Source: Escherichia phage AV109
Length of the DNA: 64,000 bases
Strand: one strand, 5' to 3'
Sequence record: OR352939.1
Both the position numbers and the translations under genes were made by a program. The notes beneath the pieces are model-generated. The model was not told where the DNA came from. It made no database searches and was given only the letters and a program-made list of their open reading frames with translations. Shown here piece after piece: positions 2,345 through 57,100 of the stretch. The stretch's first letter is position 1. Each line of letters begins with the position of its first letter.

Positions 2345-4327
2345 ATGGCACTTCTCTCTCCGGGCGTTGAGCTCAAAGAAACTACCGTACAGAGTACTGT
2401 AGTTAATAACTCCACTGGTACTGCTGCCCTGGCTGGAAAATTCCAATGGGGACCTGCATTCCAGATTAAACAAATCACTGATGAAGTTGCATTGGTTGAT
2501 ATGTTTGGTACTCCTAATACGGATACAGCAGATTATTTCATGTCTGCTATGAACTTCCTTCAATATGGTAATGACCTTCGTGTCGTACGCGCAGTTGATC
2601 GTGATACTGCTAAGAACTCATCTCCTGTGGCAGGCAATATTGAATTCACAATCTCTGCTACTGGTAGTAACTATGCGGTTGGTGATAAAATTATCGTTAA
2701 GTATTTGACCGAAACTGTTGAAGCAGATGGTTATGTCACTTCAGTTGATGTCGATGGTAAAATTCTTAACATTTATATCCCAACCGGTAAAATTATTGCT
2801 CGTGCAAAAGAAATTAATGAATATCCGGCATTGGGTTCTAACTGGACCGCCGAAGTTGCCAGTTCTTCTTCTGGACTTTCTGGCGTTATTACAATTGGTT
2901 CTATCGTAACTGATTCGGGTATTCTGTTAACTGAAGTTGAAACTTCTGAAGAAGCTATTACTTCTCTAACTTTCCAAGAATCTATTAAAAAATATGGTGT
3001 CCCAGGCGTAGTTGCTCTTTATCCTGGTGAACTTGGCGACCAGCTCGAAATTGAAATCGTATCTAAAGCAGACTATGACAAAGGTGCTTCAGCCCAGTTA
3101 AAAATTTATCCTGATGGTGGTACTCGTGCATCTACTGCTAAAGCAATCTTTGGGTATGGCCCACAAACTGATGACCAATATGCAATTATCGTTCGTCGTA
3201 ACGATGCTGTAGTTCAGAGCGTAGTTCTTTCTACTAAACGCGGTGAACGAGATATTTATGGTAGTAATATCTTTATTGATGATTTCTTTGCTAAAGGCGC
3301 AAGCAATTATATTTTCGCTACTGCACAAGGTTGGCCAAAAGGTTTCTCTGGCGTAATCAAACTGGGTGGCGGCTTATCATCTAATGAAACTGTTGACGCT
3401 GGTGATTTAATGGAAGCTTGGGATTTGTTTGCTGACCGCGAATCTGTTAATGCGCAGTTGTTTATTGCCGGTTCTTGTGCAGGTGAATCTTTAGAAGTTG
3501 CTTCTACAGTTCAGAAACATGTTGTAGCAATTGGTGATTCTCGCCAAGATTGCTTGGTTCTTTGCTCACCGCCACGTGCAACTATAGTCGGTATTCCTGT
3601 TAATCGTGCAGTTGATAATCTGGTTGATTGGCGTACTGCGTCAGGAACTTACACTGATAATAACTTTAATGTAAGTTCTACTTATGCCGCTATTGACGGT
3701 AACTATAAATATCAATATGACAAATATAATGATGTGAATCGTTGGGTTCCATTAGCTGCTGATATTGCTGGTCTTTGTGCTCGCACAGACAATATTTCTC
3801 AGCCTTGGATGTCTCCTGCCGGTTATAACCGTGGACAAATTCTTAACGTTATTAAGCTTGCAATTGAAACTCGCCAAGCGCAGCGTGATCGTTTGTACCA
3901 GGAAGCTATTAACCCTGTTACTGGTACCGGTGGTGATGGGTATGTTCTGTACGGTGATAAAACTGCCACTTCTGTTCCTTCACCATTTGACCGTATTAAC
4001 GTTCGTCGTTTGTTCAATATGGTTAAAACGAACATTGGTTCAGCATCTAAATATCGCCTGTTTGAATTGAACAACGCATTTACCCGTTCTTCTTTCCGTA
4101 CAGAGACTTCTCAATATCTACAGGGTATTAAAGCTCTCGGTGGTGTATATAACTTTAAAGTTGTTTGTGATACTACCAATAACACACCAGCAGTTATCGA
4201 CCGTAATGAGTTTGTAGCTACTTTCTACTTACAACCTGCAAGATCGATAAATTATATTACGTTGAACTTTGTAGCAACAGCAACGGGTGCCGATTTCGAC
4301 GAACTAATTGGTGCTGTAGGTGCCTAA
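2345..4327 (+). CDS. 18: contractile tail sheath protein (T4 gp18-like)
   Basis: 660 aa, late-gene position after terminase, late promoter and SD upstream. Confidence 0.95.
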   Translation: MALLSPGVELKETTVQSTVVNNSTGTAALAGKFQWGPAFQIKQITDEVALVDMFGTPNTDTADYFMSAMNFLQYGNDLRVVRAVDRDTAKNSSPVAGNIEFTISATGSNYAVGDKIIVKYLTETVEADGYVTSVDVDGKILNIYIPTGKIIARAKEINEYPALGSNWTAEVASSSSGLSGVITIGSIVTDSGILLTEVETSEEAITSLTFQESIKKYGVPGVVALYPGELGDQLEIEIVSKADYDKGASAQLKIYPDGGTRASTAKAIFGYGPQTDDQYAIIVRRNDAVVQSVVLSTKRGERDIYGSNIFIDDFFAKGASNYIFATAQGWPKGFSGVIKLGGGLSSNETVDAGDLMEAWDLFADRESVNAQLFIAGSCAGESLEVASTVQKHVVAIGDSRQDCLVLCSPPRATIVGIPVNRAVDNLVDWRTASGTYTDNNFNVSSTYAAIDGNYKYQYDKYNDVNRWVPLAADIAGLCARTDNISQPWMSPAGYNRGQILNVIKLAIETRQAQRDRLYQEAINPVTGTGGDGYVLYGDKTATSVPSPFDRINVRRLFNMVKTNIGSASKYRLFELNNAFTRSSFRTETSQYLQGIKALGGVYNFKVVCDTTNNTPAVIDRNEFVATFYLQPARSINYITLNFVATATGADFDELIGAVGA

Positions 4328-4338
4328 TAAGACGCCTG

Positions 4339-4360
4339 ATGGGCTATTTCGGTAGCCCAT
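4339..4360 (+). terminator. stem-loop after gene 18 (8-bp stem ATGGGCTA/TAGCCCAT)
   Basis: perfect inverted repeat just after the gene 18 stop; no strong T-tract, so it may be an RNA stability or processing element. Confidence 0.35.
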
Positions 4361-4367
4361 ATAAATA
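4360..4367 (+). promoter_or_regulatory. T4-type late promoter TATAAATA for gene 19
   Basis: exact TATAAATA in the 18-19 intergenic region. Confidence 0.6.
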
Positions 4368-4439
4368 TACTATATCGTTTAAAAATTAATTCTATGGGCA
4401 TCCGGTTAATCCTAAGCCCATATTACTACAGAGGCTAAT

Positions 4440-4931
4440 ATGTTTGTAGATGACGTAACTCGTGCCTTCGAATCAGGTGATTTCGCTCGCCCTAACCTGT
4501 TCGAAGTAGAAATCTCTTATCTTGGGCAAAACTTTAGCTTCCAGTGTCGTGCTACGGCTCTTCCTGCTGCGATTGTTGAAAAGGTTCCTGTTTCTTATAT
4601 GAACCGTAAAATTAACGTGGCCGGTGATCGTACATTCGATGATTGGACTATTACAGTAATGAACGATGATGCTCATAGCATTCGTCAGAAATTTGTTGAT
4701 TGGCAAGGTATTGCAGCAGGACAAGGTAATGAAATTACCGGTGGTAAACCTGCTGAATATAAAAAGTCCGCTATCGTTCGTCAATTTGCTCGTGATGCTA
4801 AAACGGTCACTAAAGAAGTTGAAATTGTCGGCTTGTGGCCTACTAACGTTGGCGAAGTATCTCTTGACTGGGACAGCAATAACGAGATTGAAACGTTCGA
4901 AGTAACTCTTGCTCTTGATTGGTGGGAATAA
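4440..4931 (+). CDS. 19: tail tube protein (T4 gp19-like)
   Basis: 163 aa, same size and position as T4 gp19. Confidence 0.92.
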   Translation: MFVDDVTRAFESGDFARPNLFEVEISYLGQNFSFQCRATALPAAIVEKVPVSYMNRKINVAGDRTFDDWTITVMNDDAHSIRQKFVDWQGIAAGQGNEITGGKPAEYKKSAIVRQFARDAKTVTKEVEIVGLWPTNVGEVSLDWDSNNEIETFEVTLALDWWE

Positions 4932-10378: not shown

Positions 10379-11038
10379 CTATAGCTTAAAACAATCATCG
10401 CGTTCATTAATCCAATTTCTTATAGTTTTTGCGGATACGTTAAAGAATTCGGCAGCGTAATCGTAGTGGTTAAATTCATGGCCTTTAATAGAAATATCCA
10501 CAAATACAAATTTCTTACCTTTATTAGAATTCTTTCTAATTTTTGCTTTATGCTCTTCTGATAGTTTTCTACCTTTAAGATGAGAATCTCTATTTTTATA
10601 AAACTTTTTATTTGCTATAGATTTGTTTTCTCGATGTTCTTTAGATTCTTTAGAACCTAATTTCTTTTTAGATATTTTGGCCCGAACTTCTTCAGTCATA
10701 CCAGCTTTTGTCTTTTCGGATAACATCTCACGATACCCAGGTTCCTGTAAAGCTACTATAACAGGATTACCCTTGCCGCCTAAGGCTGCATTATAAGTAT
10801 CTGTTCTCATGACAAAAGCCTCGTCAACTAGTTCGGCTTCCTTAGCATACATCTCTTCAGATGTTTCGAAATTGAAAAGGATTTCCTTTTTAAAATTCTC
10901 TAAGCCGTATTTCTTTATGGATTTTACTATGTTAACCCCGGAACCCATATAAGAATCGTTAACATCTGTGGTGGCATGGGCTCCAACATAAATCTTGTTA
11001 TTAATGAGATTGGTTATTTTGTAAATTAAATAATTCAT
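10379..11038 (-). CDS. free-standing GIY-YIG homing endonuclease (SegD-like position between genes 23 and 24)
   Basis: N-terminal YKITN...KIYVG GIY-YIG motif, lysine-rich NUMOD-like middle, C-terminal DNA-binding tail. Confidence 0.85.
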   Translation of the reverse strand: MNYLIYKITNLINNKIYVGAHATTDVNDSYMGSGVNIVKSIKKYGLENFKKEILFNFETSEEMYAKEAELVDEAFVMRTDTYNAALGGKGNPVIVALQEPGYREMLSEKTKAGMTEEVRAKISKKKLGSKESKEHRENKSIANKKFYKNRDSHLKGRKLSEEHKAKIRKNSNKGKKFVFVDISIKGHEFNHYDYAAEFFNVSAKTIRNWINERDDCFKL

Positions 11039-43684: not shown

Positions 43685-45949
43685 TTAAAGCTTACAAGCA
43701 GAACAATCTTCAGCTTTAGGTGTTTCTAATTCATAGTCATCTGTACCTGACCCATCACGAGTGTTATGATAGTAGAGGTTTTTTCCGCCAAAGTACCAGA
43801 AGTAAAGCAGATCGTCAAGCATTACTGACATTGGCACTTTACCTTTCTCAAATACTGCAGGGTCATAGTAAGTATTAGCAGAAGCAGATTGGCACACCCA
43901 TTTCAACATGATAGCAACTTGGGTCAAATAAGGTTTATTACCTTTCTTAGCAAGTTTCCACGCGTAGTCGTAAAGACTCATGTTATGTTCTATATTAGGA
44001 ACAACCTGTCGGAAGTTGCCTTCTTTAGATTCTTTAATACTTACAGGTCCACGAGGTGGTTCTATACCATTTGTGCTATTTGAGACTTGACTGCTTGACT
44101 CACAAGGCATGAGTGCAGACAACGTTGAGTTACGAATTCCATGTTCTTTGAGTTCAGCTCGAAGTTCTTCCCAGTCACAGACATAGTTCGGGGCTGCGAT
44201 TTGGTCAATCTTTTTATTGTACCAGTCGATAGGTAATTCGCCTCTAGACCATTTAGTGTCTGAATAATACTCACAAGGTCCTTTTTCTTTGGCGAGTTTG
44301 ATTGATGCTTTGATAAGGCCATATTGCAATCTCTCGAACAATTCATGGGTCAAATCGTTAGCGTCTTCATATGAAGCAAAGTTAGAAGCTAACCATGCAG
44401 CATAGTTCGTCACACCAACACCGAGATTTCGACGCTTTTTAGCTTTTAAAGCTTCTGGAACCGGATAATCTTGATAGTCTAACAGGTTATCAAGTGCACG
44501 TACTTGTACTTCAGCAAGTTCATTAATTTTATCTTGGTCTTGCCAATCAAATTTATCTAATACAAAAGCAGATAATGTGCATAAACCAATTTCAGCATCA
44601 GGACCATTCACATCATTAGTTGGAATAGCGATTTCACAACATAAGTTACTCTGACGAATTGGAGCTTTTTCACGAATAAACGGAGTGTAGTTATTCGTGT
44701 TATCAACAAACTGTGGATAAATTCGAGCAGTGCCAGAACGTTCAGTCATGAACAATTCAAAGAGTTCTAGTGCTTTGATTCTTTTCTTTCTGATTGTTGG
44801 GTCTTTTTCAGCTTTCTCATAAAGCTCACGGAATTTATCTTGATCTTCAAAGAACGAGTAGTATAGTTCACCTGACATTTCGTGAGGGCTAAATAAAGTA
44901 ATATAATCATTTTTACCAAGGCGTTCCATCATAAGGTCATTAATCTGAATTCCGTAGTCCATATGTCGAATACGGTTTTCATCCACGCCTTTGTTATTTT
45001 TCAGAACTAATAGGTTCTCTACTTCTAAGTGCCACATCGGATAATACGCTGTAGCAGCACCACCACGAATACCACCTTGAGAACAAGATTTTACTGCAGT
45101 TTGGAAATGTTTCCAGAATGGAATAACACCCGTATGTCGGACTTCACCCATACCGATCTTAGAACCTTCTGCACGAAGCATACCAACGTTGATACCGATA
45201 CCAGCTCGTTTAGAAATATATTCAATAATTGATGCTGAAGTTTTGTTAATAGATTTTAACGAATCACCGGCTTCAATAACTACACAACTAGAGAACTGGC
45301 GAGTCGGAGTGCGAGCACCTGCCATAATTGGAGTAGGCAATGAAACTTGATGAGTAGAAACGGCATCATAAAAACGAATAATATGTTTCAAACGGTCATG
45401 AGTTTCGTCTTGATGTAAGGCCATACCAATAGCCATGATAGCAAACTGTGGAGTTTCATAAATCTTCCCAGTTGTTTTATCTTTAACCAAGTATTTTTCT
45501 TTAAGCTGCATAGCACCAGCATAAGTCAGGTCAAAGTCTCGTTCATGTTTAATCTGTGAATCGAGATAAATGATTTCTTCTGCTGAATATTTAGACAACA
45601 ACTCAGGGTCATATTTGCCTTCATTAACACAGTAAGAAATATGGTCGATAAAAGCAGGCGGTTCAAACTGCCCATATACATCTTTACGAAGTGCAAACAT
45701 TAGCCCTTTGGCGGCGACATACTGATAATCGGGTTCTTCGACAGAAATCAAGTTAGCTGCAACTTTAATACAAATCTTCTGAATATCTTTGGTGCTCATC
45801 CCATCAACCAGATGAGTCTTAATTTCTTCATACAATTCGTATGGGTCGATTTGTGTTCCTTCACACTGCCAAGTTAATACTTGAATAATTTTCTGTGCAT
45901 CAAAATTTTGGGATACACCTGAATTTTTCACTACTTTAAAATTATACAT
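43685..45949 (-). CDS. nrdA: ribonucleotide reductase large subunit NrdA
   Basis: 754 aa, same length as T4 NrdA; near-identical to recalled T4 sequence over long stretches. Confidence 0.97.
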   Translation of the reverse strand: MYNFKVVKNSGVSQNFDAQKIIQVLTWQCEGTQIDPYELYEEIKTHLVDGMSTKDIQKICIKVAANLISVEEPDYQYVAAKGLMFALRKDVYGQFEPPAFIDHISYCVNEGKYDPELLSKYSAEEIIYLDSQIKHERDFDLTYAGAMQLKEKYLVKDKTTGKIYETPQFAIMAIGMALHQDETHDRLKHIIRFYDAVSTHQVSLPTPIMAGARTPTRQFSSCVVIEAGDSLKSINKTSASIIEYISKRAGIGINVGMLRAEGSKIGMGEVRHTGVIPFWKHFQTAVKSCSQGGIRGGAATAYYPMWHLEVENLLVLKNNKGVDENRIRHMDYGIQINDLMMERLGKNDYITLFSPHEMSGELYYSFFEDQDKFRELYEKAEKDPTIRKKRIKALELFELFMTERSGTARIYPQFVDNTNNYTPFIREKAPIRQSNLCCEIAIPTNDVNGPDAEIGLCTLSAFVLDKFDWQDQDKINELAEVQVRALDNLLDYQDYPVPEALKAKKRRNLGVGVTNYAAWLASNFASYEDANDLTHELFERLQYGLIKASIKLAKEKGPCEYYSDTKWSRGELPIDWYNKKIDQIAAPNYVCDWEELRAELKEHGIRNSTLSALMPCESSSQVSNSTNGIEPPRGPVSIKESKEGNFRQVVPNIEHNMSLYDYAWKLAKKGNKPYLTQVAIMLKWVCQSASANTYYDPAVFEKGKVPMSVMLDDLLYFWYFGGKNLYYHNTRDGSGTDDYELETPKAEDCSACKL

Positions 45950-46577
45950 AATAATTCCATGTTGGATAATTTGATGATTTTAGACGGCGTCTAACCGTTT
46001 GGGTGCTCATAGATAAAATTATTGACGCTTCATTTAATGTATCATATATTACGTCGTTTATAATTACTTTCTTTGCAAATGGATTCTTAGCTCCTATCAT
46101 AGCGTTAGAAATAGCTTGCTTAGTTGATTCTTTTAATGGGACTCCTTTAGAAATTTTTGTTTTAATTTTTATATTGTATTGTCCGCGTTTTTTACCTAAT
46201 AAAGAATTTCGTATCTTTTCTTTAGTCTCTTCAGATTTAACATGTCCTAGTTTGGAACGAGATATTTTATCTTTTGTTTTTTGGTCTAATTTTCGCCCTT
46301 TAAGCAAATCAACCATTTTTGCTCTAGCCCATCCAAATTCTTTATTATTTCTAGAACTCATTAAATTAACCGCGGTTGCTAAACCTAAATTGTTCGGATA
46401 TATTTTTAATAAAAGAAGATGAGCCAAATAATGTTCTGAATATGTTAATTTAACTAGATTGTATGACTCATTGGTGCCACCTAAACATTTTGGGATTATA
46501 TGATGCCATTCACCATCGATATCTTCAAAATTTCTTTCTTTATTTACTAAGTTTTTATATATTTTTAAATAATCCAT
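45942..46577 (-). CDS. free-standing HNH homing endonuclease with NUMOD-like repeats
   Basis: HNH motif EWHHIIPK...NLVKLTYSEHYLAH; repeated ETKEKIR/STKQAIS motifs; track start 46589 is a GTG, ATG at 46577; overlaps nrdA start by 8 nt. Confidence 0.8.
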   Translation of the reverse strand: MDYLKIYKNLVNKERNFEDIDGEWHHIIPKCLGGTNESYNLVKLTYSEHYLAHLLLLKIYPNNLGLATAVNLMSSRNNKEFGWARAKMVDLLKGRKLDQKTKDKISRSKLGHVKSEETKEKIRNSLLGKKRGQYNIKIKTKISKGVPLKESTKQAISNAMIGAKNPFAKKVIINDVIYDTLNEASIILSMSTQTVRRRLKSSNYPTWNYYV

Positions 46578-46653
46578 AGTATAATCCACTTTGTAGTATC
46601 AACGGGATAGTATTTATCCCGTTAATTTTATTATACACTTTTAAACTGAAGCG

Positions 46654-46909: not shown

Positions 46910-47221
46910 TTATACCGCCATTTTAGCTTTGATAGCTGGATGTGATTCGTAATTTTTAAGAACGAAATCAGAATGTGTCATCGTTCCGGTAACCCAGTCC
47001 ATTTGGATTTTTGTAGGCCAATTCTCAAAATTACTAGGCCAATTAATTTCAAGAGAACATAACTCTTTAGGTTCACGACGAAGAACTTCTTTGCATTGTT
47101 CTACATGATTGCTGTAGATATGCGTGTTGCCGCCTGAGAACACTAAATCACCTGGGATAAGGTTACACATCTTCGCTACAATATGTGTCAAGGCAGCGTA
47201 CGAGGCGATGTTGAACGGTAG
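46910..47221 (-). CDS. td: thymidylate synthase, exon 2
   Basis: LPFNIASYAAL.. continues the ThyA sequence; 3' splice site ..AUAAUG|CUA as in T4 td. Confidence 0.92.
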   Translation of the reverse strand, partial: LPFNIASYAALTHIVAKMCNLIPGDLVFSGGNTHIYSNHVEQCKEVLRREPKELCSLEINWPSNFENWPTKIQMDWVTGTMTHSDFVLKNYESHPAIKAKMAV

Positions 47222-48237
47222 CATTATGTTCAGATAAGGTCGTTAATCTTATCCCGGAATTATATCCAGCTGCATGTCACCATGCAGAGCAGACTATATC
47301 TCCAACTTGTTAAAGCAAGTTGTCTATCGTTTCGAGTCACTTGACCCTACTCCCTAAAGGGATAGTCGTTAGGCATTTATGTAGAACCAATTCCACTTAT
47401 CAGATTTTACACGGTAAGTAACTAATCCTGATGAAATTTCAAAATGTCTAGCCGCATCGGCTGCACATTCAAAAATAATCCCATCGCATGAAATCTTTTT
47501 GATGTTAGCTGGCTTTTTGCCTTTCATCTTTTCAGATAGTTTAGTTTTAGTTTTTTCTGAATGTTTGTGATTAAAGAACGGGTTATTTTCACCTGAACGT
47601 TTTCGGCACTTTCCACAAGTATCGGCCGAAGATGGTATGCGAACACCGCATTTACAAAACTTGTGGTTTTCTGGATTCCATCGGCCATTTTTACTTCCGT
47701 GTTTACCATAAAGAGCTTTCCGACCATCAGGACCAAGCTTAAGCATCTTAGCTTTAACAGTTTCAGCTCGTTTCTTAGCAATTTCTTCTTTTAATGGATG
47801 ATTTGAAAGCACATCGCCAAAAGACGCATCAGCAATATTATATCCATTAATTTTAGAATTTAGCTCTTTAATCCAAAAATTTTCTCGTTCAATAATCAAA
47901 TCTTTCTCATATGGAATTTCTTCCAGTATAGAGCATTCAAAAACATTACCATGTTTATTAAAAGACCTTTGAAATTTTATAGAAGAGTGAACACCGTTTT
48001 CAAGGTCTTTAAAATGTCTCTTCCATCTTTTCTCAAAATCTTTAGCACTTCCAACATACACTTTACCGTTTAAAGTGTTTTTAATCTGATAAATTCCGCT
48101 TTTCATAAACACCTCTTTTTATATAGAAGTATTTATTAAAGGGTAGTCCTACAATTTAGCACGGGATTGTCTACTAGAGAGGTCCCCCGTTTAGATAGAT
48201 TACAAGTATAAGTCACCTTATACCTAGGCCTAAATTA
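47222..48237 (-). mobile_element. group I intron in td (1016 nt) carrying I-TevI
   Basis: 5' end UAAUUUAGGCCUAGGUAUAAGGUGACUUAUACUUGUAAUCUAUCUAAACGGGG matches the recalled T4 td intron; length 1016 as in T4. Confidence 0.92.
47369..48106 (-). CDS. I-TevI: GIY-YIG homing endonuclease I-TevI (intron-encoded)
   Basis: 245 aa from the ATG at 48106 (track starts at an upstream GTG); near-identical to recalled T4 I-TevI. Confidence 0.93.
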   Translation of the reverse strand: MKSGIYQIKNTLNGKVYVGSAKDFEKRWKRHFKDLENGVHSSIKFQRSFNKHGNVFECSILEEIPYEKDLIIERENFWIKELNSKINGYNIADASFGDVLSNHPLKEEIAKKRAETVKAKMLKLGPDGRKALYGKHGSKNGRWNPENHKFCKCGVRIPSSADTCGKCRKRSGENNPFFNHKHSEKTKTKLSEKMKGKKPANIKKISCDGIIFECAADAARHFEISSGLVTYRVKSDKWNWFYINA

Positions 48238-48786
48238 ACCTAAGAAAACATCTACACTGCGTTGATACCATTGTAAATCAAGATGTCCATTACGCACATT
48301 AAATTGATAGAACATATGACAAGGAGGAAGAGCCATTTGATTTATTTCAGCCGGATTCCAGGCAGAAACAATTTGACGACGATCAGTTGGTAATTTTTTA
48401 ATACGGTCGATTGTTTCAACTAATTGGTCTACACCACCAAAATCACGCCATTGCTTACCATAAATAGGACCAAGTTCGCCGCTATGATATCCAAGGTCTT
48501 TTGCCTGATTTTCATAGTTGTCGTCCCAAATAGTTTTACCTTGAATAAGACTACCATGAGTACGAATACGCAAATCATTAACATTTGTAGAGCCAGACAT
48601 GAACCATAATAGCTCAGCAATACAAGCTTTCCATGCAAGCTTCTTGGTTGTTACTGCAGGAAATCCTTTAGTCAGATCCCATCGCAATTTAGTTCCGAAC
48701 AGGGCAATAGTGCCGGTACCTGTACGGTCGTCTGTTTCGTAGCCATTTTCTAGGATATCATTAATCAGGTATTGGTATTGTTTCAT
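48238..48786 (-). CDS. td: thymidylate synthase, exon 1
   Basis: 183 codons ending ..QRSVDVFLG immediately before the intron UAA. Confidence 0.93.
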
Positions 48787-49370
48787 TTATATACGCTCTC
48801 AGTAATTTCGGTGAGTTCATCGATTCTGTAGTAATGAGATTCTACCATAGAACGTTGAAGCATAATATCTTGAATGAAATCTTTATCAAGTTGAACGTCT
48901 GAATTAACACGACATTTCTTAATGATTTTAGTCATCACGATTTCATCAGCATAAGGCAATGCTTGTTTCAATAAAGCAGGGCCACCAATAACAGATACAT
49001 CAACATGTTCAGTAGAAAGTTTAAATGGTACGTCAGTTGCAGTGCTAAACAGGTTAATTTCACCACCCATTACCAAGGTAATAAATTCAGATTGGGTGAT
49101 ATAGAAACGCGCAAGTTCGTTGGTTTTGGTCCTAGGCAGTTCTCTGGCCATATCAGTGACAACCACATGAGTACGATCCTGGAGTAGACGAGGTAATGAT
49201 GCAAAAGTCTTAGCACCCATAACCATTACAGTGTTTTTAGTGCGAGCAACAAAGTTACTCATATCTTGTTTGATATGCTTCCATGGAAGTCCATCACCTA
49301 ATCCAAAAGCATATTCCAGTTTATCATCAACTGTTTTAGTCGGAGCGCATGCGAATACTAATTTAAGCAT
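48783..49370 (-). CDS. frd: dihydrofolate reductase
   Basis: 195 aa; matches recalled T4 Frd (GLGDGLPW, VSVIGGPALL, LPYADE); ATGA overlap with td. Confidence 0.93.
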   Translation of the reverse strand: MLKLVFACAPTKTVDDKLEYAFGLGDGLPWKHIKQDMSNFVARTKNTVMVMGAKTFASLPRLLQDRTHVVVTDMARELPRTKTNELARFYITQSEFITLVMGGEINLFSTATDVPFKLSTEHVDVSVIGGPALLKQALPYADEIVMTKIIKKCRVNSDVQLDKDFIQDIMLQRSMVESHYYRIDELTEITESVYK

Positions 49371-49373
49371 TTT

Positions 49374-49622
49374 TTATTTCCTCAGATTTTTCTTAACAAC
49401 TTTCCAATCAGCTTTAAACGATTCAACATCAGAGTGGTGAATCCAGAATCCTGCACTTTCACCATCTTCGTAGAGTGGACATCCATCGCATTCTTCGTTC
49501 CAACCCATTTCACGTAAAGCTTCTTCAGCTTGTTCAAGGAGTTCAGCGTCTTTACCAACGATGTTGAAGTACCATTTACCTCTAACTTCAGAATCTTTGA
49601 TGCTCTGGCGTTGCAATCTCAT
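49374..49622 (-). CDS. hypothetical protein (frd.1-like position), 82 aa from ATG
   Basis: track ORF starts at a GTG at 49685; the ATG at 49622 is preceded by GAAGGAG. Confidence 0.5.
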   Translation of the reverse strand: MRLQRQSIKDSEVRGKWYFNIVGKDAELLEQAEEALREMGWNEECDGCPLYEDGESAGFWIHHSDVESFKADWKVVKKNLRK

Positions 49623-49684
49623 TTTATTCTCCTTCACTTTTGATTTGATAGGGCTACTATAACATAACCCTATCTGATTATACA

Positions 49685-50077
49685 CTACTTTTTAAAAGTT
49701 TTTTGCAAAAGTTTGATGATTTCGTCGACGTTGGTTTCATCTACGATACAATGGATTTTTGTTACACCTAAAGTTATACCTTCGTTAGTAGGTTGAGGCT
49801 TTACTAAATCTACTTCAATAAAGTATTTGAACTCGTCAGGATAAATCTCGAAATAAGTTTCAATTTCACCACCGGCAGAACATACAGTACCGTCTTCCAT
49901 AGTTACACTTACTACGTTTGACGTATCGCTATCATAATCAGGTTCCATTCCGTTTACAACAAAACTAGGCCCATGGAGTTCAATCAATTTTAACATCTTA
50001 GCGTTATTGTGTGGTGCTTCTTGAACAAAGTCGTCTTTAAATAAAGGGTTAATGATATAAGATTTTCCGATTTCCAT
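49685..50077 (-). CDS. hypothetical protein (frd.2-like position)
   Basis: 130-aa ORF behind an early promoter and conserved leader. Confidence 0.55.
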   Translation of the reverse strand: MEIGKSYIINPLFKDDFVQEAPHNNAKMLKLIELHGPSFVVNGMEPDYDSDTSNVVSVTMEDGTVCSAGGEIETYFEIYPDEFKYFIEVDLVKPQPTNEGITLGVTKIHCIVDETNVDEIIKLLQKTFKK

Positions 50078-50106
50078 TTTGATTTCCTCATGTTGTTGAT
50101 AGGTCT

Positions 50107-50135
50107 ATACTAACACATCCAGGGAAGAAGTAAAC
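50107..50135 (-). promoter_or_regulatory. T4-type early promoter (-35 GTTTAC, 17-nt spacer, extended -10 TGnTAGTAT)
   Basis: repeat-family promoter downstream of the gene 32 terminator. Confidence 0.55.
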
Positions 50136-50166
50136 AACTTTTTCAGCAATTTACAGATACTCAAAA

Positions 50167-50184
50167 GGGAGACCGAAGTCTCCC
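50167..50184 (-). terminator. terminator hairpin GGGAGAC-CGAA-GTCTCCC after gene 32
   Basis: perfect 7-bp stem, UUCG loop in the mRNA, U4 downstream. Confidence 0.55.
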
Positions 50185-50190
50185 AATTTA

Positions 50191-51090
50191 TTATAGACCA
50201 GCTAACAGGTCATCGAGGTCGCCATCGTCAGAAGACGAGGAACTCATGAAGTCATCTTCAGTTTTTGCAGAACTAAAGGCTTCCATGTCTTTATCAAAAT
50301 CGTCAAGGTCAGAAGCAACTTTATCTGCAACAGAAGCTGCTGCGGCTGCTGCACCACCAAGAGCGGCAGTACCAAGAACTTGATTAAATTTAGTATTCAA
50401 TTCTTCAAACGATTTGAACTTATCTTTAGAAGTCATTTCAGAAAGGTCGACCATTTGTTCGAACAATTCTTTCTGGAAAGATTCATCATCAATGTTTGGA
50501 ATCGCAGATTGATTCAGGAATTTAGATTCGTCGTAGTTACTGAAACCAGAAACCTGTTTAACTTTCAGCACGAAGTTAGCACCTTCCCATGGGCAAGTTA
50601 CATCAACAGGAGTTTCACCCATTTCAGTATCGACTGCAATCATTGCATTGATTTTGTCCCAAATCTTTTTACCGAAACGATATTTGAATACTTTACCTTC
50701 ATTATCTGGAGCTTGAGGGTCTTTAACAACCAGAATATTAGCCCAATAAGAAGTTTTACGTTTCAGTTGAGAATATTCAGTTTTGTTGGTATTGTACAGG
50801 TCATTTTTACTAATGTACTGACATACAGGACAAGAGTCATAATCACCGTGTGTAGATGAACAGGTTTCAATATACCATTTGCCATTTTTCTTGAACCCGT
50901 GGTTAACAAGAATTGCAAACGGAAGTGCGTCATCTGTTTTTGCCGGCAGGAAACGAATTACCGCTTGGCCATTACCGGATGCGTCGAGTTTCAGCTTCCA
51001 TTCACCTTTATCTTCTGAAGAGAAACCTTTGTTACCATTCAGTTTAGCCATCTGAGCTGCGAGGTCTGCGGTACTTTTACGTTTAAACAT
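50191..51090 (-). CDS. 32: single-stranded DNA-binding protein (T4 gp32-like)
   Basis: 299 aa; near-identical to recalled T4 gp32, including the acidic Ser/Asp-rich C-terminus. Confidence 0.97.
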
Positions 51091-51160
51091 TTTATTTGCC
51101 TTTATTTAGATTATTAATTAAATTTTACAGTTGGTTGCTACGACACTTATACCTCGTAGC
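51091..51160 (-). promoter_or_regulatory. gene 32 5' leader: AU-rich UUAAA-repeat region plus upstream hairpin (autogenous translational operator)
   Basis: minus-strand leader AAUUUAAUUAAUAAUCUAAAUAAA before the ATG and a 7-bp hairpin GCUACGA..UCGUAGC further upstream. Confidence 0.5.
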
Positions 51161-51170
51161 TGGTATGATT

Positions 51171-51178
51171 TATTTATA
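51171..51178 (-). promoter_or_regulatory. candidate T4-type late promoter (TATAAATA on minus strand) for gene 32
   Basis: plus-strand TATTTATA about 80 nt upstream of the gene 32 ATG. Confidence 0.45.
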
Positions 51179-51207
51179 AAGTAATTTTAACACACAAGAA
51201 ATAAAGC

Positions 51208-51861
51208 TTAATACTTACATGATTTGATTGTTTCTATGAACAATTTCTTAGCAGCATTTCTATCGATTTGAAGTATTTTTCGATATGCCTTTAATTTGGT
51301 AGAATAATTTTGCCAGACTAAGTTATCGGTGAGTTCGTCGTGCTTATCTATAATATTCAAAAATGAGTCCAACAATAAGAAAGTCTCAAATGAAATTATA
51401 TTGCTTTGTAGCAATTTGAATATGTAGCTCGACTGAACGTTGCTATTATAATCAAATATCTCTTGAAGCGCACTAACTTCAACTTTCTTACTGAAATAGT
51501 AGATGTTACGTACGTCTTCAGCAAACGACTCTTTAGCTTGTTTGAGACGTCCAATATATTCCCTATAGAAAACTAATGCATCAGCGTCTGATATCTCACC
51601 AATCCATGCGTCTTGGTTAGCAACTAAGTTGCTTATGAATATCAAGGTGAGTTCCTTCAATTTATATTTCTCTGCTAGTTTTTCAAAGAAATATTTATCT
51701 CGGCGTTTTTGATACGCATTATCCGAAACACGCATGCACCAGTTATATTTGATTACGTCATACCGACCACCAAAGTGGTTTTTGCACATCAAGTATAGTT
51801 TATATACTGATTTTCCATTAATATAACGTTCTCCGTCAGGAGGCATGCGTATTTTAATCAT
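51208..51861 (-). CDS. 59: helicase loader (T4 gp59-like)
   Basis: 217 aa; near-identical to recalled T4 gp59. Confidence 0.95.
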   Translation of the reverse strand: MIKIRMPPDGERYINGKSVYKLYLMCKNHFGGRYDVIKYNWCMRVSDNAYQKRRDKYFFEKLAEKYKLKELTLIFISNLVANQDAWIGEISDADALVFYREYIGRLKQAKESFAEDVRNIYYFSKKVEVSALQEIFDYNSNVQSSYIFKLLQSNIISFETFLLLDSFLNIIDKHDELTDNLVWQNYSTKLKAYRKILQIDRNAAKKLFIETIKSCKY

Positions 51862-52537
51862 AGTTCCATCCAGGCCATTTTGAAGATTTAAGTCTATATG
51901 TAACTAAAGACGCAGAAATATTAAAAACATTTGAAACTTCTTTACACGAGGCGTATTTTATACCATCAATAATTATAGGTTTTTGTTTTTTAATAGTTCT
52001 TTCTTTAGAATGCGGCTTTGAATTTGCTATTCTAAGAGCTTCTTTGGTTGAATCAGGCATCGGCTTATTCGTTTTTCGCCCTTTTCGGACTTTACTCAAG
52101 GCCAATTTGTGAGCTTCAGATAGTTTCTTACCCTTATTAGGTGACGGTATTTTTCTTTCTAGTCTTGTTTTAGATACTTTAGCCTTAGTCTCTTCAGATC
52201 TAGGTTTACCTAATTTAGAAAGTGAAATAGACCTTTTAGCTTCATCACTTTGTTTTTTACCAGGACCACCTTTACCACCGGGAACTAAGTTATAAGTATC
52301 ATCTCGCAAAACAAAATCTTCATTAACCAATTCTGCTTCTTTTTTATAGGCGTCCTTGTCATTATCATATTCATAAAGAATTTCGGTATAAAAATTTTTT
52401 AGTCCATATTTAGCTTTGGCCGCTAATATAGCGCGGCCTGATCCAATATACCAATCTTTCTCTTTATGTTTTTTGTGTACGCCTATATAAATTTTACCAT
52501 TTATTTTATTGGTAGTTTTATACACAACGTATTTCAT
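51854..52537 (-). CDS. free-standing GIY-YIG homing endonuclease (Seg-like) between genes 33 and 59
   Basis: N-terminal YKTTNKINGKIYIG GIY-YIG motif, NUMOD-like Lys/Ser repeats, C-terminal DNA-binding region; ATGA overlap with gene 33 and 8-nt overlap with gene 59. Confidence 0.85.
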   Translation of the reverse strand: MKYVVYKTTNKINGKIYIGVHKKHKEKDWYIGSGRAILAAKAKYGLKNFYTEILYEYDNDKDAYKKEAELVNEDFVLRDDTYNLVPGGKGGPGKKQSDEAKRSISLSKLGKPRSEETKAKVSKTRLERKIPSPNKGKKLSEAHKLALSKVRKGRKTNKPMPDSTKEALRIANSKPHSKERTIKKQKPIIIDGIKYASCKEVSNVFNISASLVTYRLKSSKWPGWNYD

Positions 52538-52872
52538 AATAAGAAATCTAACGTATTAGTTTTTTCACCACGAGCAACTGATGGGCGAAGCATGTTTTCG
52601 TCAATTGCTTCGCTTGTAATTTTTTCAACAATTCCTGTAGGAATAAATTTAGCAAATTGTGTTTCTGGAATAGAATTTTCTTCCAAGAAAGCAGTTGTTG
52701 CTTCTAAATAAGACATACCAAATTGTTCAACCATGGATTCGATAATGAATCCGTTTTCTTGTCGGTCAAGCAATTTAGCGATATCATCTTTATCGTGTTT
52801 TACTGCTAATTCTTGTTCAGATAAACCGGCCTCATCAACCGGTTTAATATCACTTAGTGAAAACTGTGTCAT
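52534..52872 (-). CDS. 33: late transcription accessory protein (T4 gp33-like)
   Basis: 112 aa, same length as T4 gp33. Confidence 0.9.
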   Translation of the reverse strand: MTQFSLSDIKPVDEAGLSEQELAVKHDKDDIAKLLDRQENGFIIESMVEQFGMSYLEATTAFLEENSIPETQFAKFIPTGIVEKITSEAIDENMLRPSVARGEKTNTLDFLL

Positions 52873-53137
52873 AAAGCTCGACTACCTCTTCGTTTTCAGC
52901 TTCAAATTGGTCACGAGCGTCTTTATGATAAAGAGCTAACAAACGATTAAACATTTTTCCATCGACGCCAAGCTCTTCTTTAGCACGAGTACGAATGTCT
53001 TTAATCAGTTCATTATAACCAGAAATTTTAAGTTTGTTATCGGAAGCTTCTTTGACTAGTTTAGCCAGTTCTTCACCATGCACATCTTGATTAAATTCAA
53101 CTGCTTCTTTCTTAGCCATGTTTACCTCAGAATTCAT
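52850..53137 (-). CDS. dsbA: double-stranded DNA-binding protein DsbA-like
   Basis: 95-aa ORF between rnh and gene 33, as T4 dsbA. Confidence 0.75.
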   Translation of the reverse strand: MNSEVNMAKKEAVEFNQDVHGEELAKLVKEASDNKLKISGYNELIKDIRTRAKEELGVDGKMFNRLLALYHKDARDQFEAENEEVVELYDTVFTK

Positions 53138-54044
53138 TAATTACACTTGTTAATTTAGAAAGACCAGATTTTACAAAGTATGAATAAATCTTGCCTTTAG
53201 GTTGTGGTTTATATGAGTTATAATACTCTATAATGGTTGAAGCAATATTATCAGGGATATAATCAAAATCAATGAGAACCAAATTTTCTTGATACCGTTT
53301 ATATTCTTCTGCACTTAATAATACTTCAGCTTGAGAACGGTCATTAGCAATTGCTTCAATAATCGTTGTTTTCATGCTCGGAGTTCGTTCACCATCAACT
53401 CTGGTAAACCAGAAGTCACCACGAACTCGAACAGATGCAACGCCGTCTTTACGGTCACCTTTAAGAATTTTAGTCATGCAATCAATTTCAGCAGAACCGT
53501 TCTTAATTTTAACCCATTTTTTCTGTGGTGGCGACCACTGTTTAACGTTAGGATATTTGTGTAATTGTGTAAAGTCACCATCTGATGCAACAATACATAC
53601 CTTATGACCGGCTAATGACAAATATTTAGTTAATACACCGATATGGTCATCCGCTTCATACTTGTCAATATCCATTACAACGTATGGCATGTATTTCTTA
53701 ATCTCATCAACAACTTGATGGAGTGCAGTAAAATATCCTTCCCAATCCCACTTTGAAGCTTCACGATCGGTTTTACGATTTTTCTTGTAATAGTAAGCAA
53801 AATCACGTCGCCAATAACCTGAAGTAGCATTATCCATACACAATACAAATTTTGTATAGCCTTGCTTACGGAACATCACTACGTTTTTACGAATTGAATT
53901 CAAGATTACATGGCGAACCATCGGAACAGTAATTTTATCGCCGTCTTCAAAGTTGTTTAATGCGGCTGCCAATGCAATGTTACTAAAGTCGGCAAGTGCA
54001 ATACCTTCTTTGTAATCTTCATCCAACATCATTTCTAAATCCAT
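53127..54044 (-). CDS. rnh: RNase H / 5'-3' exonuclease
   Basis: 305 aa; near-identical to recalled T4 RNase H. Confidence 0.95.
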   Translation of the reverse strand: MDLEMMLDEDYKEGIALADFSNIALAAALNNFEDGDKITVPMVRHVILNSIRKNVVMFRKQGYTKFVLCMDNATSGYWRRDFAYYYKKNRKTDREASKWDWEGYFTALHQVVDEIKKYMPYVVMDIDKYEADDHIGVLTKYLSLAGHKVCIVASDGDFTQLHKYPNVKQWSPPQKKWVKIKNGSAEIDCMTKILKGDRKDGVASVRVRGDFWFTRVDGERTPSMKTTIIEAIANDRSQAEVLLSAEEYKRYQENLVLIDFDYIPDNIASTIIEYYNSYKPQPKGKIYSYFVKSGLSKLTSVINEF

Positions 54045-54076
54045 ATGAACCTCTTGTTCAGTTAGTCAACTTGTCT

Positions 54077-54106
54077 ATAGTAACACACTCATTTGAAAGC
54101 GTAAAC
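54077..54106 (-). promoter_or_regulatory. T4-type early promoter for rnh (-35 GTTTAC, 18-nt spacer, extended -10 TGnTACTAT)
   Basis: repeat-family promoter; its -35 lies 3 nt from the divergent gene 34 late promoter. Confidence 0.55.
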
Positions 54107-54109
54107 TGG

Positions 54110-54117
54110 TATAAATA
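54110..54117 (+). promoter_or_regulatory. T4-type late promoter TATAAATA for gene 34
   Basis: exact TATAAATA 31 nt upstream of the gene 34 ATG. Confidence 0.7.
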
Positions 54118-54147
54118 AGTATTATTGAAACAATAAAGGAAAAACGA

Positions 54148-57100
54148 ATGGCCGACATCAAACGTAAGTTCAGAGCCGAAGACGGTCTGGACGCCGGTGG
54201 CGACAAGATTGTTAACGTAGCATTAGCCGACCGTACAGTAGGTACTGATGGCGTAAACGTTGACTTCCTGGTACAAGAAAACACCGTTCAAGTATATGAT
54301 TCTACACGTGGATATAACAAAGGATTTGTTGTTCTTTATGACAACCGTTTATATCAAGCAATAAATGATATCGTGTCTCCTTCCGGGGCATTTAACCTTT
54401 TACAATGGCGTGCAGTTCGTACTGATACACAATGGATAACTGTCGCTTCTGGGACTTATCAACTTTCTTCAGGTGAATCGATTTCGGTTAACACTGGTGC
54501 CGGCAATGATATGGTTTTCACGTTGCCAAATACTCCTGTTGATGGTGATACTGTTGTTTTGGCTGATATTGGTGGAAGAACCGGGACAGTTAAAGTACAG
54601 ATTAACGCGTCTGTACAGAGTATTTTAAACTTTAGAGGTGAACAAGTTCGTACGGTTTTAATGACGCGTCCGCGTTCACAACTATTGTTTGTGTTTAGTA
54701 ATCGTTTGTGGCAGATGTATATTACCGATTATGGTAAAGAATCAATCACTGTTACACCTGCGACACCATATCAAGCACAAGCAAATGATTTTATCGTTCG
54801 TCGTTTTACTAGTGCAGCACCAATCAACATTACACTTCCACGTAATGCTAACAATGGTGATATAATCAGCCTAGTCGATTTAGATAGATTAAACCCACTG
54901 TATCATACAATTGTTAAAACATTTGATGATACAACGTCTATTGGTGAAGTCGGGACTCATATTGCCGAAGGCAGAAATGACTCTGACGCGTTTTTTGTTT
55001 TTGATGCCGCAAATAGTTTATGGCGTATATGGGAAGGCGACCAGAAATCGCGTCTTCGTATTATCCGTGCGGATTCAAATATTCGTCCAAATGAAGAAGT
55101 TCTTATTTTTGGCACAAATAACGCTACAGCCGGAACTATTAATCTTACGCTGCCTTCCGGAATTTTGAGTGGTGACACTGTTAAAATTTCAATGAACTAC
55201 ATGCGTAAAGGCCAAACAGTAAAAATTAAAGCTGCCGAAGGTGATACAATTGCTTCTTCTGTCGCATTACTTCAGTTCCCTAAACGTTCTGAATATCCAC
55301 CTGATGCTCAATGGGTTTCTGTTACTGAACTAGAATTCAATGGCACTACTTCATATGTTCCTGTGTTAGAATTAGCGTATATCGAAGACACTGTTGCTGG
55401 TACACGTTATTGGGTTGTTCAACAAAACGTCCCTACAGTAGAACGTGTTGATGCTGGAACTGATGCTACACGAGCTCGTTTAGGTGTTATTGCTCTTGCT
55501 ACTCAAGCGCAAGCAAATGTTGATTTAGAGAATACTCCAGCTAAAGAAGTGGCTATTACTCCGGAAACATTGGCAAATCGTACAGCAACTGAAGCTCGAC
55601 GTGGTATCGCTAAAATTGCTACAACAGCACAAGTTAACCAGAATTCCACAGCATCATTTGTGGACGATACTATTGTTACGCCTAAAAAACTAAATGAGCG
55701 TACAGCAACTGAAACTCGTCGCGGTCTTGCTGAAATTGCTACTCAGACCGAAACCGATGCTGGTCTTGATGACACAACGATTATTACACCTAAGAAATTG
55801 CAGGCACGTCAGGGTTCTGAAACACTATCGGGTATAGTTAAATATGTATCAACTACTTCTGCTACTCCTGCTGAAACTCGTGGGGCTGCAGGCACTAACG
55901 TTTATAATAAAACCGTAAATAATTTAACTATTTCTCCTAAAGCCCTTGACCAATATAAAGCAACTTATGCTCAACAAGGTGCAGTAATTTTAGCTGTTGA
56001 AAGTGAAGTAATTGCTGGTCAATCCCAAGCAGGTTATTCTCACGCTGTAGTAACTCCTGAAACACTACATAAGAAAACTTCTACTGATGGACGTATTGGT
56101 TTAATTGAAATTGCTACGCAAGCAGAAACTAATGCTGGGACTGATTATACACGTGCAGTAACGCCTAAGACGTTAAATGATAGGAAAGCTACGGAAGGAT
56201 TATCCGGCATAGCCGAACTTGCTACGCAAGTCGAATTTGATACTGGAACTGATGATACTCGTATCTCGACTCCACTGAAAATTAAAACTCATTTTGATTC
56301 TTCTGACCGTACCAGTGTTAATTCTGATTCCGGACTTATTGAAGAAGGAACCTTGTGGAACCATTATACTCTTGATATTTCTAAAGCAAATGAAACACAA
56401 CGTGGTACACTTCGCGTAGCGACCCAGGCAGAATCTAATGCAGGAACTTTAGATGATGTTCTTATTACTCCTAAAAAGCTTTTAGGGACTAAGTCCACTG
56501 AAACGTCTGAAGGCGTAATTAAGGTTGCTACTCAGGCTGAAACTGTAACAGGAACTTCTGCTAATACTGCTGTATCTCCTAAGAATTTAAAATGGATTGT
56601 CCAGAAAGAACCAACATGGGCTGCTACTACAGCAATTCGCGGATTCGTTAAAACTTCATCCGGTTCTATTACATTCGTTGGTAATGATACAGTTGGTTCA
56701 ACACAACCTTTAGAATCATATGAGAAAAATAGCTATGCAGTATCACCATATGAATTAAACCGTGTATTAGCAAATTATTTGCCGTTAAAAGCAAAAGCTG
56801 TAGATAGTAATTTATTGGATGGTCTAGATTCATCTCAGTTCATTCGTAGGGATATTGCACAGACGGTTAATGGTTCACTAACCTTAACCCAACAAACGAA
56901 TCTGAGTGCCCCTCTTGTATCATCTAGTACTGCTACGTTTGGTGGTTCAGTTTCGGCAAATAGTACATTGACTATTTCTAATACGGGAACAGCTACTCGA
57001 CTGATTTTTGAAAAAGGACCTCAGTCCGGAACAAATCCTGCTCAAACGATGACTATCAGAGTTTGGGGAAATGAATTTGGTGGTGGTTCAGATACAACAC

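Follow-up and report, generated by a model that had tools for sequence, protein, structure and literature searches.

A putative free-standing GIY-YIG homing endonuclease gene at the overlapping junction of genes 33 and 59 in T4-like phages

The seg and mob genes of phage T4 have been described as promoter-less cassettes with overlapping starts (PMC2988022). Five of the 12 free-standing endonuclease ORFs of that phage overlap the ORF upstream of them, namely mobE (through the sequence UAAUGA), segC (by 20 bp), segF (by 11 bp), mobA and mobC, and for mobE translational coupling has been proposed, as an arrangement that would keep endonuclease levels low (PMC2988022). Among the Seg proteins, SegA, SegB, SegC and SegE are active enzymes, SegD is listed as not tested for activity, and the cuts of SegG and SegF fall within neighbouring genes (32 and 56, respectively) and not at the enzymes' own insertion sites (PMC2988022). 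Close spacing is also apparent from the T4 RefSeq annotation, where mobC overlaps nrdD by 4 nt and nrdG by 11 nt, mobD overlaps nrdC.11 by 17 nt, segC and segE end 2 nt before gene 5.3 and uvsW, respectively, and segG starts 1 nt after the stop of gene 59, while genes 33 and 59 overlap each other directly. The cuts made by T4 SegG and SegF lie at distances of roughly 200-330 bp.

The locus described here lies in a window of 64,000 nucleotides from Escherichia phage AV109 (OR352939.1), which over the region concerned is 100% identical to Escherichia phage AV114 (OR352944.1; Straboviridae, Mosigvirus), with coinciding coordinates; the name AV114 is used below. A reading made from the sequence alone had seen in this locus, where a seg-like gene overlaps conserved genes on both sides, an unusual degree of integration for a selfish element. 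Overlaps are, however, common in the endonuclease genes of T-even phages, as seen for mobC and for an HNH endonuclease gene in the window itself (45942-46577, minus strand), which overlaps the start of nrdA by 8 nt (ATGTATAA). Tight packing is ordinary for T-even homing endonuclease genes.

The gene and its product

On the minus strand the gene order is rnh, dsbA, 33, an ORF of 227 aa (hereafter seg; 51854..52537), 59, a spacer of 117 nt, and 32. The upstream neighbour of seg, gene 33 (52534..52872), encodes the late-transcription co-activator (Pfam Trans_coact, 3.5e-26), and the downstream neighbour, gene 59 (51208..51861), the helicase loader (Pfam T4_Gp59_N/C, 1.9e-49 and 5.4e-44); gene 32 follows at 50191-51090 (Pfam gp32, 2.3e-64), all three on the minus strand. 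The seg ORF, with the N-terminal start MKYVVYKTTNKINGKIYIG, already bears the GenBank label 'putative Seg-like homing DNA endonuclease'. At its upstream end the seg ATG (52537-52535) and the TGA stop of gene 33 (52536-52534) share the sequence ATGA (52534..52537, minus strand), an overlap of 4 nt. At the downstream end the sequence ATGATTAA (51854..51861, minus strand) contains both the start codon of gene 59 and the seg stop, as the last seg codons, GAT TAA, lie inside the gene 59 start ATG ATT AA (51861-51854); this overlap is 8 nt long, and the TAA is made by codons 2-3 of gene 59. Both overlaps are as the sequence-only reading had claimed. Identical junctions were present in all six of the other seg-bearing Mosigvirus records with annotation that were examined, and this, together with the best family match of the protein, to PHROG 314 'homing endonuclease' (6.6e-56), led to the rejection of a chance ORF.

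The spacer between genes 59 and 32 (51091..51207, minus strand) holds a late-promoter match, TATAAATA at 51171-51178 on the minus strand, followed by an A/U-rich gene 32 leader, which we take to be the gene 32 operator. There is no ORF in this spacer, where T4 has segG. The earlier reading was right about the position of T4 segG; its further statement, that AV114 has only the gene 32 operator there, holds as far as the lack of an ORF is concerned, while the identity of the operator is without an Rfam match, no family having been matched between 50900 and 53000, the gene 32 leader included.

When the protein was compared by blastp with the T4 endonucleases, taken from RefSeq, the top match was SegD (39.5% identity over 200 aa, 2e-37), followed by SegC (2.5e-26), SegB (1.3e-24), SegE (1.3e-21) and then SegA, and a full-length alignment was obtained with I-TevI (27% identity, 8e-9); SegG was not matched in this comparison. 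The Seg-like GIY-YIG identity that had been read from the sequence is borne out by the matches to SegD, SegC, SegB and SegE, by PHROG 314 and by profile matches to I-TevI. Three parts can be delimited: an N-terminal GIY-YIG catalytic domain (about aa 1-90; 52268..52537, minus strand), a basic linker with NUMOD3-type repeats (about aa 93-180; 51998..52261, minus strand), which is some 33 aa shorter in the homologues from Karamvirus and Winklervirus, and a C-terminal helix-turn-helix DNA-binding domain of the I-TevI type (aa 183-226; 51860..51991, minus strand; PF20987, 1i3j). The last of these is matched by Pfam I-TevI_DNA-bd (PF20987) over residues 183-226 with 45.3 bits against a cut-off of 27 (E 8.3e-12), and a profile built from five homologues matches both solved domains of I-TevI, the DNA-binding domain 1i3j at 9.8e-8 and the catalytic domain 1mk0 at 1.5e-3. 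Three further Pfam matches are sub-threshold, namely SegE_GIY-YIG (22.4 bits, gathering cut-off 25), GIY-YIG (14.2 bits, gathering cut-off 22.6) and a weak match to NUMOD3.

Residues Y6, Y17, E67 and N83 are invariant among five seg homologues from four genera, and they align at, or within two residues of, Y6, Y17, E75 and N90 of I-TevI. No invariant arginine equivalent to R27 of I-TevI is evident in the five-homologue alignment; the local motif found in its place (H21-K22, GSG) is common to T4 SegA-E. A single-sequence AlphaFold model of the protein is poor (pLDDT 51.9, pTM 0.27) and too weak for the placement of residues; the order of secondary-structure elements that this poor model gives for residues 2-70 (strand, strand, helix, strand, helix) fits the GIY-YIG fold. 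Judged by these matches, the protein is a predicted free-standing GIY-YIG homing endonuclease of the SegA-E type, and its nearest T4 paralogue is SegD. As a side observation, the C-terminus of the protein (...PGWNYD) resembles that of the HNH endonuclease encoded elsewhere in the window (...PTWNYYV).

Orthology with either of two T4 genes was considered and rejected. In the case of SegD, AV114 has a separate gene at the SegD site (10379-11038), with only 36.6% identity. In the case of SegG, which the sequence-only reading had named as the T4 seg gene of this neighbourhood, there is no ORF in the 59-32 spacer and no blastp match, and the Dhakavirus IME540 has both genes, the second of them, placed between 59 and 32, encoding a homologue of SegG (58% identity); gene 59 of that phage is therefore flanked by two independent endonuclease genes.

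Distribution and the ancestral junction

The gene is present in 28 of the 185 phage records that match the region; the rest match in two pieces with seg missing, most of them with flank identities of 95-99%. A domesticated gene would be expected to be fixed or nearly fixed, with no empty sites, and this is at odds with the distribution seen here: about 150 records are near-identical at the level of Mosigvirus, the 28 that carry seg amount to about one in five or six, some 120-150 near-identical records lack it, and the uninterrupted empty site occurs in 125 records. Presence and absence are found even among co-collected phages, as the Danish collection that includes AV114 holds four phages with the gene (AV110, AV114, AV115 and AV118), one with a frameshifted copy (AV116) and two without it (AV111 and AV117). 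The seg-less G53 matches the seg-bearing PHB12 without a single difference over 214 nt upstream (left) and 105 nt downstream (right) of the insertion point, and no fixed flanking difference was found between seven loci with the gene and six without it. The features expected of a mobile element are seen here, that is, presence and absence among close relatives, precise boundaries between conserved genes, and the same insertion site in diverged hosts.

The state of the junction before insertion can be read from genomes without the gene. Both the seg-less Mosigvirus NBG1 and T4 have this ATGA where gene 33 meets gene 59. In the IMG/VR set, ATGA was found at the 33/59 junction position in 30 of the 35 loci fetched, and of the 34 T4-like loci without seg, 25 have a gp33 alignment that ends exactly at the A of the gene 59 ATG. 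Comparison with NBG1 gives an insertion of exactly 676 bp, with TATGA at both flanks. The element lands exactly on the ancestral ATGA, such that the seg start occupies the position of the gene 59 start in empty genomes and the TGA within ATGA terminates gene 33 in genomes with seg. The occurrence of ATGA in seg-less Mosigviruses indicates that the coupling junction is older than seg, and by this comparison of genomes the coupling is seemingly a property that the element inherited from the 33/59 junction and not one that seg evolved. The overlaps are a consequence of the place of insertion and of the compact style of such elements, and not evidence of domestication.

In Dhakavirus, Karamvirus and Winklervirus, tblastn found homologues of AV114 Seg with 47-56% identity at the 33/59 junction. 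Every match with at least 47% identity adjoins gene 33, whereas those with no more than 38% are found elsewhere, for instance at the SegD site (23/24). The Dhakavirus copies (IME540, AnYang and LQ5; 56% identity to AV114 Seg) and the Karamvirus copy of Enterobacter phage KMB20 (47%) overlap gene 33 by 4 nt and gene 59 by 8 nt, while the Winklervirus copies (CHI14, CBH8, LC53 and Kosakonia phage Kc304; 50-52%) overlap gene 33 by 4 nt and gene 59 by 26 nt, these overlap sizes being taken from the annotation of four records (IME540, CHI14, LC53 and KMB20). RefSeq already annotates the copy at 33/59 as a homing endonuclease, and in the record of Serratia phage CHI14 it is labelled 'segD'.

In all three of these genera seg starts ATGATTAA(A/G), encoding M-I-K; gene 59 starts with these eight bases too, so that the element is bracketed by an 8-nt direct repeat. 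In AV114 the right-hand copy of this repeat is the ATGATTAA at 51854..51861, and the ATT codon has been lost from the seg start. The origin of the two copies can be read from Winklervirus, where gene 59 starts ATGATAACG and offers no in-frame TAA to seg; the seg frame there continues for 26 nt within gene 59, which adds the tail NDSHAS. The seg stop codon is thereby shown to be host sequence, and since the left-hand ATGATTAA of Winklervirus is unlike the gene 59 start of its host, the left-hand copy travels with the element. The sequence-only reading had allowed that T4 itself might prove to have a seg gene at this site with identical junctions; T4 has none there, yet the site is the canonical one of this seg lineage in four genera. 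As far as the sequenced genomes indicate, the 33/59 stop/start junction is a lineage-specific home of this seg lineage.

Divergence within Mosigvirus differs between the gene and its flank. For AV114 and PaulHMueller dS is 0.195 in seg and 0.058 in gene 59, and for PaulHMueller and SSE1 it is 0.014 in seg and 0.15 in gene 59, the kind of discordance that movement of seg or its flanks between genomes would be expected to produce. The gene is under purifying selection (dN/dS 0.04-0.10, with dS up to 0.19), and 27 of its 28 tblastn matches form a single uninterrupted piece of 96-100% amino-acid identity. AV116 is a viable isolate in which one additional C ends the reading frame at codon 108. The AV114 seg is a real and intact gene, and the homing endonuclease it encodes is probably active.

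Expression, mobility and rival readings

No late-promoter match (TATAAATA) was found on the minus strand between 51179 and 54044, that is, from the gene 32 promoter to rnh, and the stretch from rnh to gene 59 has no terminator-like site on that strand. No Shine-Dalgarno match is present in the 22 nt that precede ATGA (anti-SD duplex +0.4 kcal/mol), and seg has the layout of a coupled cistron, with a start that overlaps the upstream stop and no ribosome-binding site of its own. By these features seg, which has no late-promoter match of its own, looks like a promoter-less, coupling-dependent cassette, as has been described for several T4 seg and mob genes. Folding of the junction RNA gives a hairpin in which the AUG of ATGA pairs with codons of gene 33 some 30 nt further upstream; this hairpin does not stand out from shuffled controls (z -0.7, and z -1.6 in the seg-less context), and no regulatory role is claimed for it.

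At the other end, the final codons of seg (P-G-W-N) include a Shine-Dalgarno-like sequence, CTGGATGGAA (51864..51873, minus strand), which precedes the ATG of gene 59 by 3-12 nt. In genomes with seg, CUGGAUGGAA in these codons, upstream of gene 59, gives -5.5 kcal/mol with the anti-SD sequence, and the element is conserved in the Dhakavirus and Karamvirus copies. It could help gene 59 to initiate, and it may also be a mere by-product of the conserved G-W codons.

The reading considered probable is that of a free-standing GIY-YIG homing endonuclease gene that has the 33/59 stop/start junction as the home of its lineage, spreads by homing and is expressed by coupling. During a mixed infection the enzyme would cut the allele that lacks seg, at the conserved 33/59 junction or close to it, and repair by recombination would copy seg into the cut allele, a process of intronless homing; genomes with seg would be protected as the insertion itself splits the target. 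The cut may also lie more than about 200 bp away, like that of T4 SegG. The gene would be co-transcribed with 33 and 59, small amounts of enzyme would be made by termination-reinitiation at ATGA, and gene 59 would restart after seg, possibly aided by the weak Shine-Dalgarno-like GGAUGGA in the last seg codons. The junction presumably encodes the clamp-binding tail of gp33 (LDFLL) together with the start of gp59. If the AV116 frameshift is real, the viability of that phage implies that gene 59 has no strict need for full-length seg to be translated, and this weakens the coupling-chain part of the model.

A more specific version can be offered only tentatively, in which the cassette mimics the junction and is adapted to an overlapping stop/start codon. 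The start ATGATTAA (M-I-K) seen in three genera would supply the stop of gene 33 and hijack the ribosome hand-over that serves gene 59, the seg stop would be borrowed from gene 59, and GGAUGGA in the last codons would restart that gene. The endonuclease would recognise the intact 33/59 junction, and immunity would come from disruption of this target, as for intron endonucleases, and not from flanking polymorphisms as for T4 SegF and SegG.

That immunity might instead rest on flanking polymorphisms, with an active enzyme cutting at a distance in the style of SegF and SegG, is regarded as unlikely. The precedent of these T4 enzymes, which cut in neighbouring genes 56 and 32 (PMC2988022), speaks for it, as does the enrichment, among phages with seg, of one haplotype over the initial 100 nt of gene 59, which is present in 17 of the 28 seg-bearing records and in about eight seg-less ones; most seg-less Mosigviruses have a different haplotype 27-91 nt into gene 59, including the gp59 changes N28Q and G31N. 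The haplotype is not diagnostic, however, as 11 records with seg are on other gene 59 5' haplotypes, while G53, JM10, a20, mobillu and others lack seg and yet have the haplotype associated with it, and there is no fixed difference in the flanks between genomes with and without the gene. A signature of co-conversion in the form of a shared haplotype, seen in the sample of seven seg-bearing and six seg-less loci, was for this reason dropped, a database-wide check having revealed several haplotypes among phages with seg and an enrichment only.

It is very unlikely that seg is a decaying relic, inactive or immobile and retained because a deletion would harm the stop of gene 33 or the start of gene 59. 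By the logic of the sequence, an imprecise deletion would indeed take one or the other, the AV116 copy is frameshifted, and mobA and I-TevIII of T4 are defective. Decay is nevertheless difficult to reconcile with the 27 uninterrupted matches among 28, at 96-100% amino-acid identity, with a dN/dS of 0.04-0.10 maintained over dS values of up to 0.19, with catalytic-motif residues that are invariant across genera, and with the discordant divergences of seg and its flanks.

Least likely of all is the view of the sequence-only reading, which had called the insertion fully domesticated into translational coupling, so that seg would be a co-opted, fixed and beneficial member of the 33-59 operon, with overlaps that evolved as a means of integrating it. 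Overlaps on both sides, an arrangement kept in four genera and purifying selection that is strong (dN/dS 0.04-0.10) would agree with this, but the ATGA is older than the insertion, seg is not fixed, as no more than 28 of about 150 close relatives have it, G53 has an empty site whose flanks are identical, the viable AV116 has a frameshifted copy, the same kind of overlaps is found in plainly selfish T4 genes, and purifying selection is equally expected for an actively homing endonuclease.

Relation to known systems

The locus adds the gene 33/59 junction, as a defined insertion site, and one Seg lineage to the catalogue of T-even homing endonucleases, and leaves the current understanding of such elements unchanged. 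The lineage is distinct from T4 SegG and SegD and is already present in public annotation, while a description of a seg gene between 33 and 59 was not found in the literature searched. Co-circulating phages with the gene (AV110, AV114, AV115 and AV118), one with the frameshifted copy (AV116) and Mosigviruses without it (AV111, AV117, G53 and JM10) make up a clean natural system that bears on two questions, namely how a free-standing endonuclease gene can occupy a coupled junction without disturbing the flanking genes, and whether or not immunity arises from disruption of the target.

Several T4 systems resemble the AV114 gene in part. SegG is likewise a free-standing GIY-YIG gene beside gene 59, tightly packed in the same transcription unit, but its place is at the opposite flank of that gene, between 59 and 32, and no sequence similarity to AV114 seg was detected. 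The mobC gene likewise sits between two conserved genes, nrdD and nrdG, overlaps both of them and is a promoter-less cassette (PMC2988022), but belongs to the HNH and not the GIY-YIG family and occupies a different locus. The junction of mobE and nrdA (UAAUGA) offers a parallel at the upstream end, as the start there overlaps the upstream stop and there is no ribosome-binding site; mobE differs in that it does not overlap the gene downstream.

In the protein itself, SegD and I-TevI provide the nearest comparisons. SegD and AV114 Seg have in common the N-terminal motif pattern YIG-H...D-Y-GSG...KYG-NF-EIL followed by NUMOD3-type repeats, whereas SegD is encoded antisense between genes 23 and 24, and the AV114 protein, located at 33/59, differs from it in ending with a helix-turn-helix domain of the I-TevI type. 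With I-TevI of the td intron the likeness extends to both ends of the protein, each of which matches a solved I-TevI domain, although I-TevI is intron-encoded and has a zinc finger, while AV114 Seg is free-standing and has NUMOD3 repeats in its linker. If the insertion of seg splits the target of its own enzyme, the logic of immunity would also be that of I-TevI.

Other endonuclease genes in the AV114 window

A SegD-position homologue, between gene 23 (major capsid protein) and gene 24 (vertex protein), lies at 10379-11038 on the minus strand and shares 36.6% identity with the 33|59 Seg; this gene brings the number of endonuclease genes in the 64-kb window of AV114 to at least four. A second free-standing endonuclease gene, of the HNH type (45942-46577, minus strand; protein MDYLKIY...HHIIPK...), is located upstream of nrdA, and an 8-nt overlap (ATGTATAA) joins its final codons to the start of nrdA. 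The encoded protein combines NUMOD3 repeats with an I-TevI-like C-terminal domain that is 36% identical to Seg residues 100-226. The C-termini of the two proteins are also alike, ending in ...PTWNYYV in the HNH protein and ...PGWNYD in Seg.

The annotation splits the thymidylate synthase gene (46910-48786, minus strand) into two parts, which in record coordinates span 46910-47224 and 48235-48786; between them lies a full-length I-TevI-like endonuclease ORF (47369-48106, minus strand) with 27% identity to Seg across 260 aa. Presumably this arrangement reflects a group I intron in td, like that of T4.

The ATGA junction and seg copies in AV116 and KMB20

At the junction of gene 33 and seg, a hairpin is predicted (window 52530-52573, minus strand) in which the AUG of the ATGA would pair with codons of gene 33 that lie some 30 nt further upstream. 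This predicted structure is common to seg+ and seg- phages, and its energy is no better than that of shuffled sequence (z of -0.7 and -1.6).

The seg copy of AV116 (OR352946.1, locus positions 2255-2938) contains an extra C (AAAGGTCCTATT versus AAAGGTCTATT), owing to which the frame stops at codon 108; this could be genuine decay or else a sequencing error. GenBank annotates only a 3' fragment of this copy, as a hypothetical protein. The KMB20 seg ORF (OL828291.1, locus positions 2498-3097) is intact when translated from the ATGA, giving 199 aa, and here too the GenBank annotation is confined to a 3' fragment (2699-3097), which it calls a hypothetical protein.

Sequence records and taxonomy labels

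The window and OR352944.1 do not match base for base: near 46629 a run of T is one T longer in the window, and further upstream, somewhere between 12500 and 44500, another 1-nt difference compensates for this; the annotated coordinates of OR352944.1 are therefore off by 1 between these points. The region of the finding (window 48600-55700) is identical in both. The taxonomy lines of PaulHMueller (MZ501098.1) and F2 (NC_054913.1) read Tequatrovirus. Despite this label, the corresponding region in both shares 97-99% identity with Mosigvirus phages, against only about 84% with T4 at the protein level.

SegG homologues between genes 59 and 32

In IME540 (MT150133.1, locus positions 2498-4462), GIY-YIG endonuclease genes stand on either side of gene 59: the 33|59 seg product is 56% identical to AV114 Seg, and the SegG homologue between 59 and 32 is 58% identical to T4 SegG. 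In the T4-like contig IMGVR_UViG_3300045988_128797, the 59-32 interval (locus positions 3792-4286) matches T4 SegG residues 46-210 only, at 95% identity, and its segG may be 5'-truncated.
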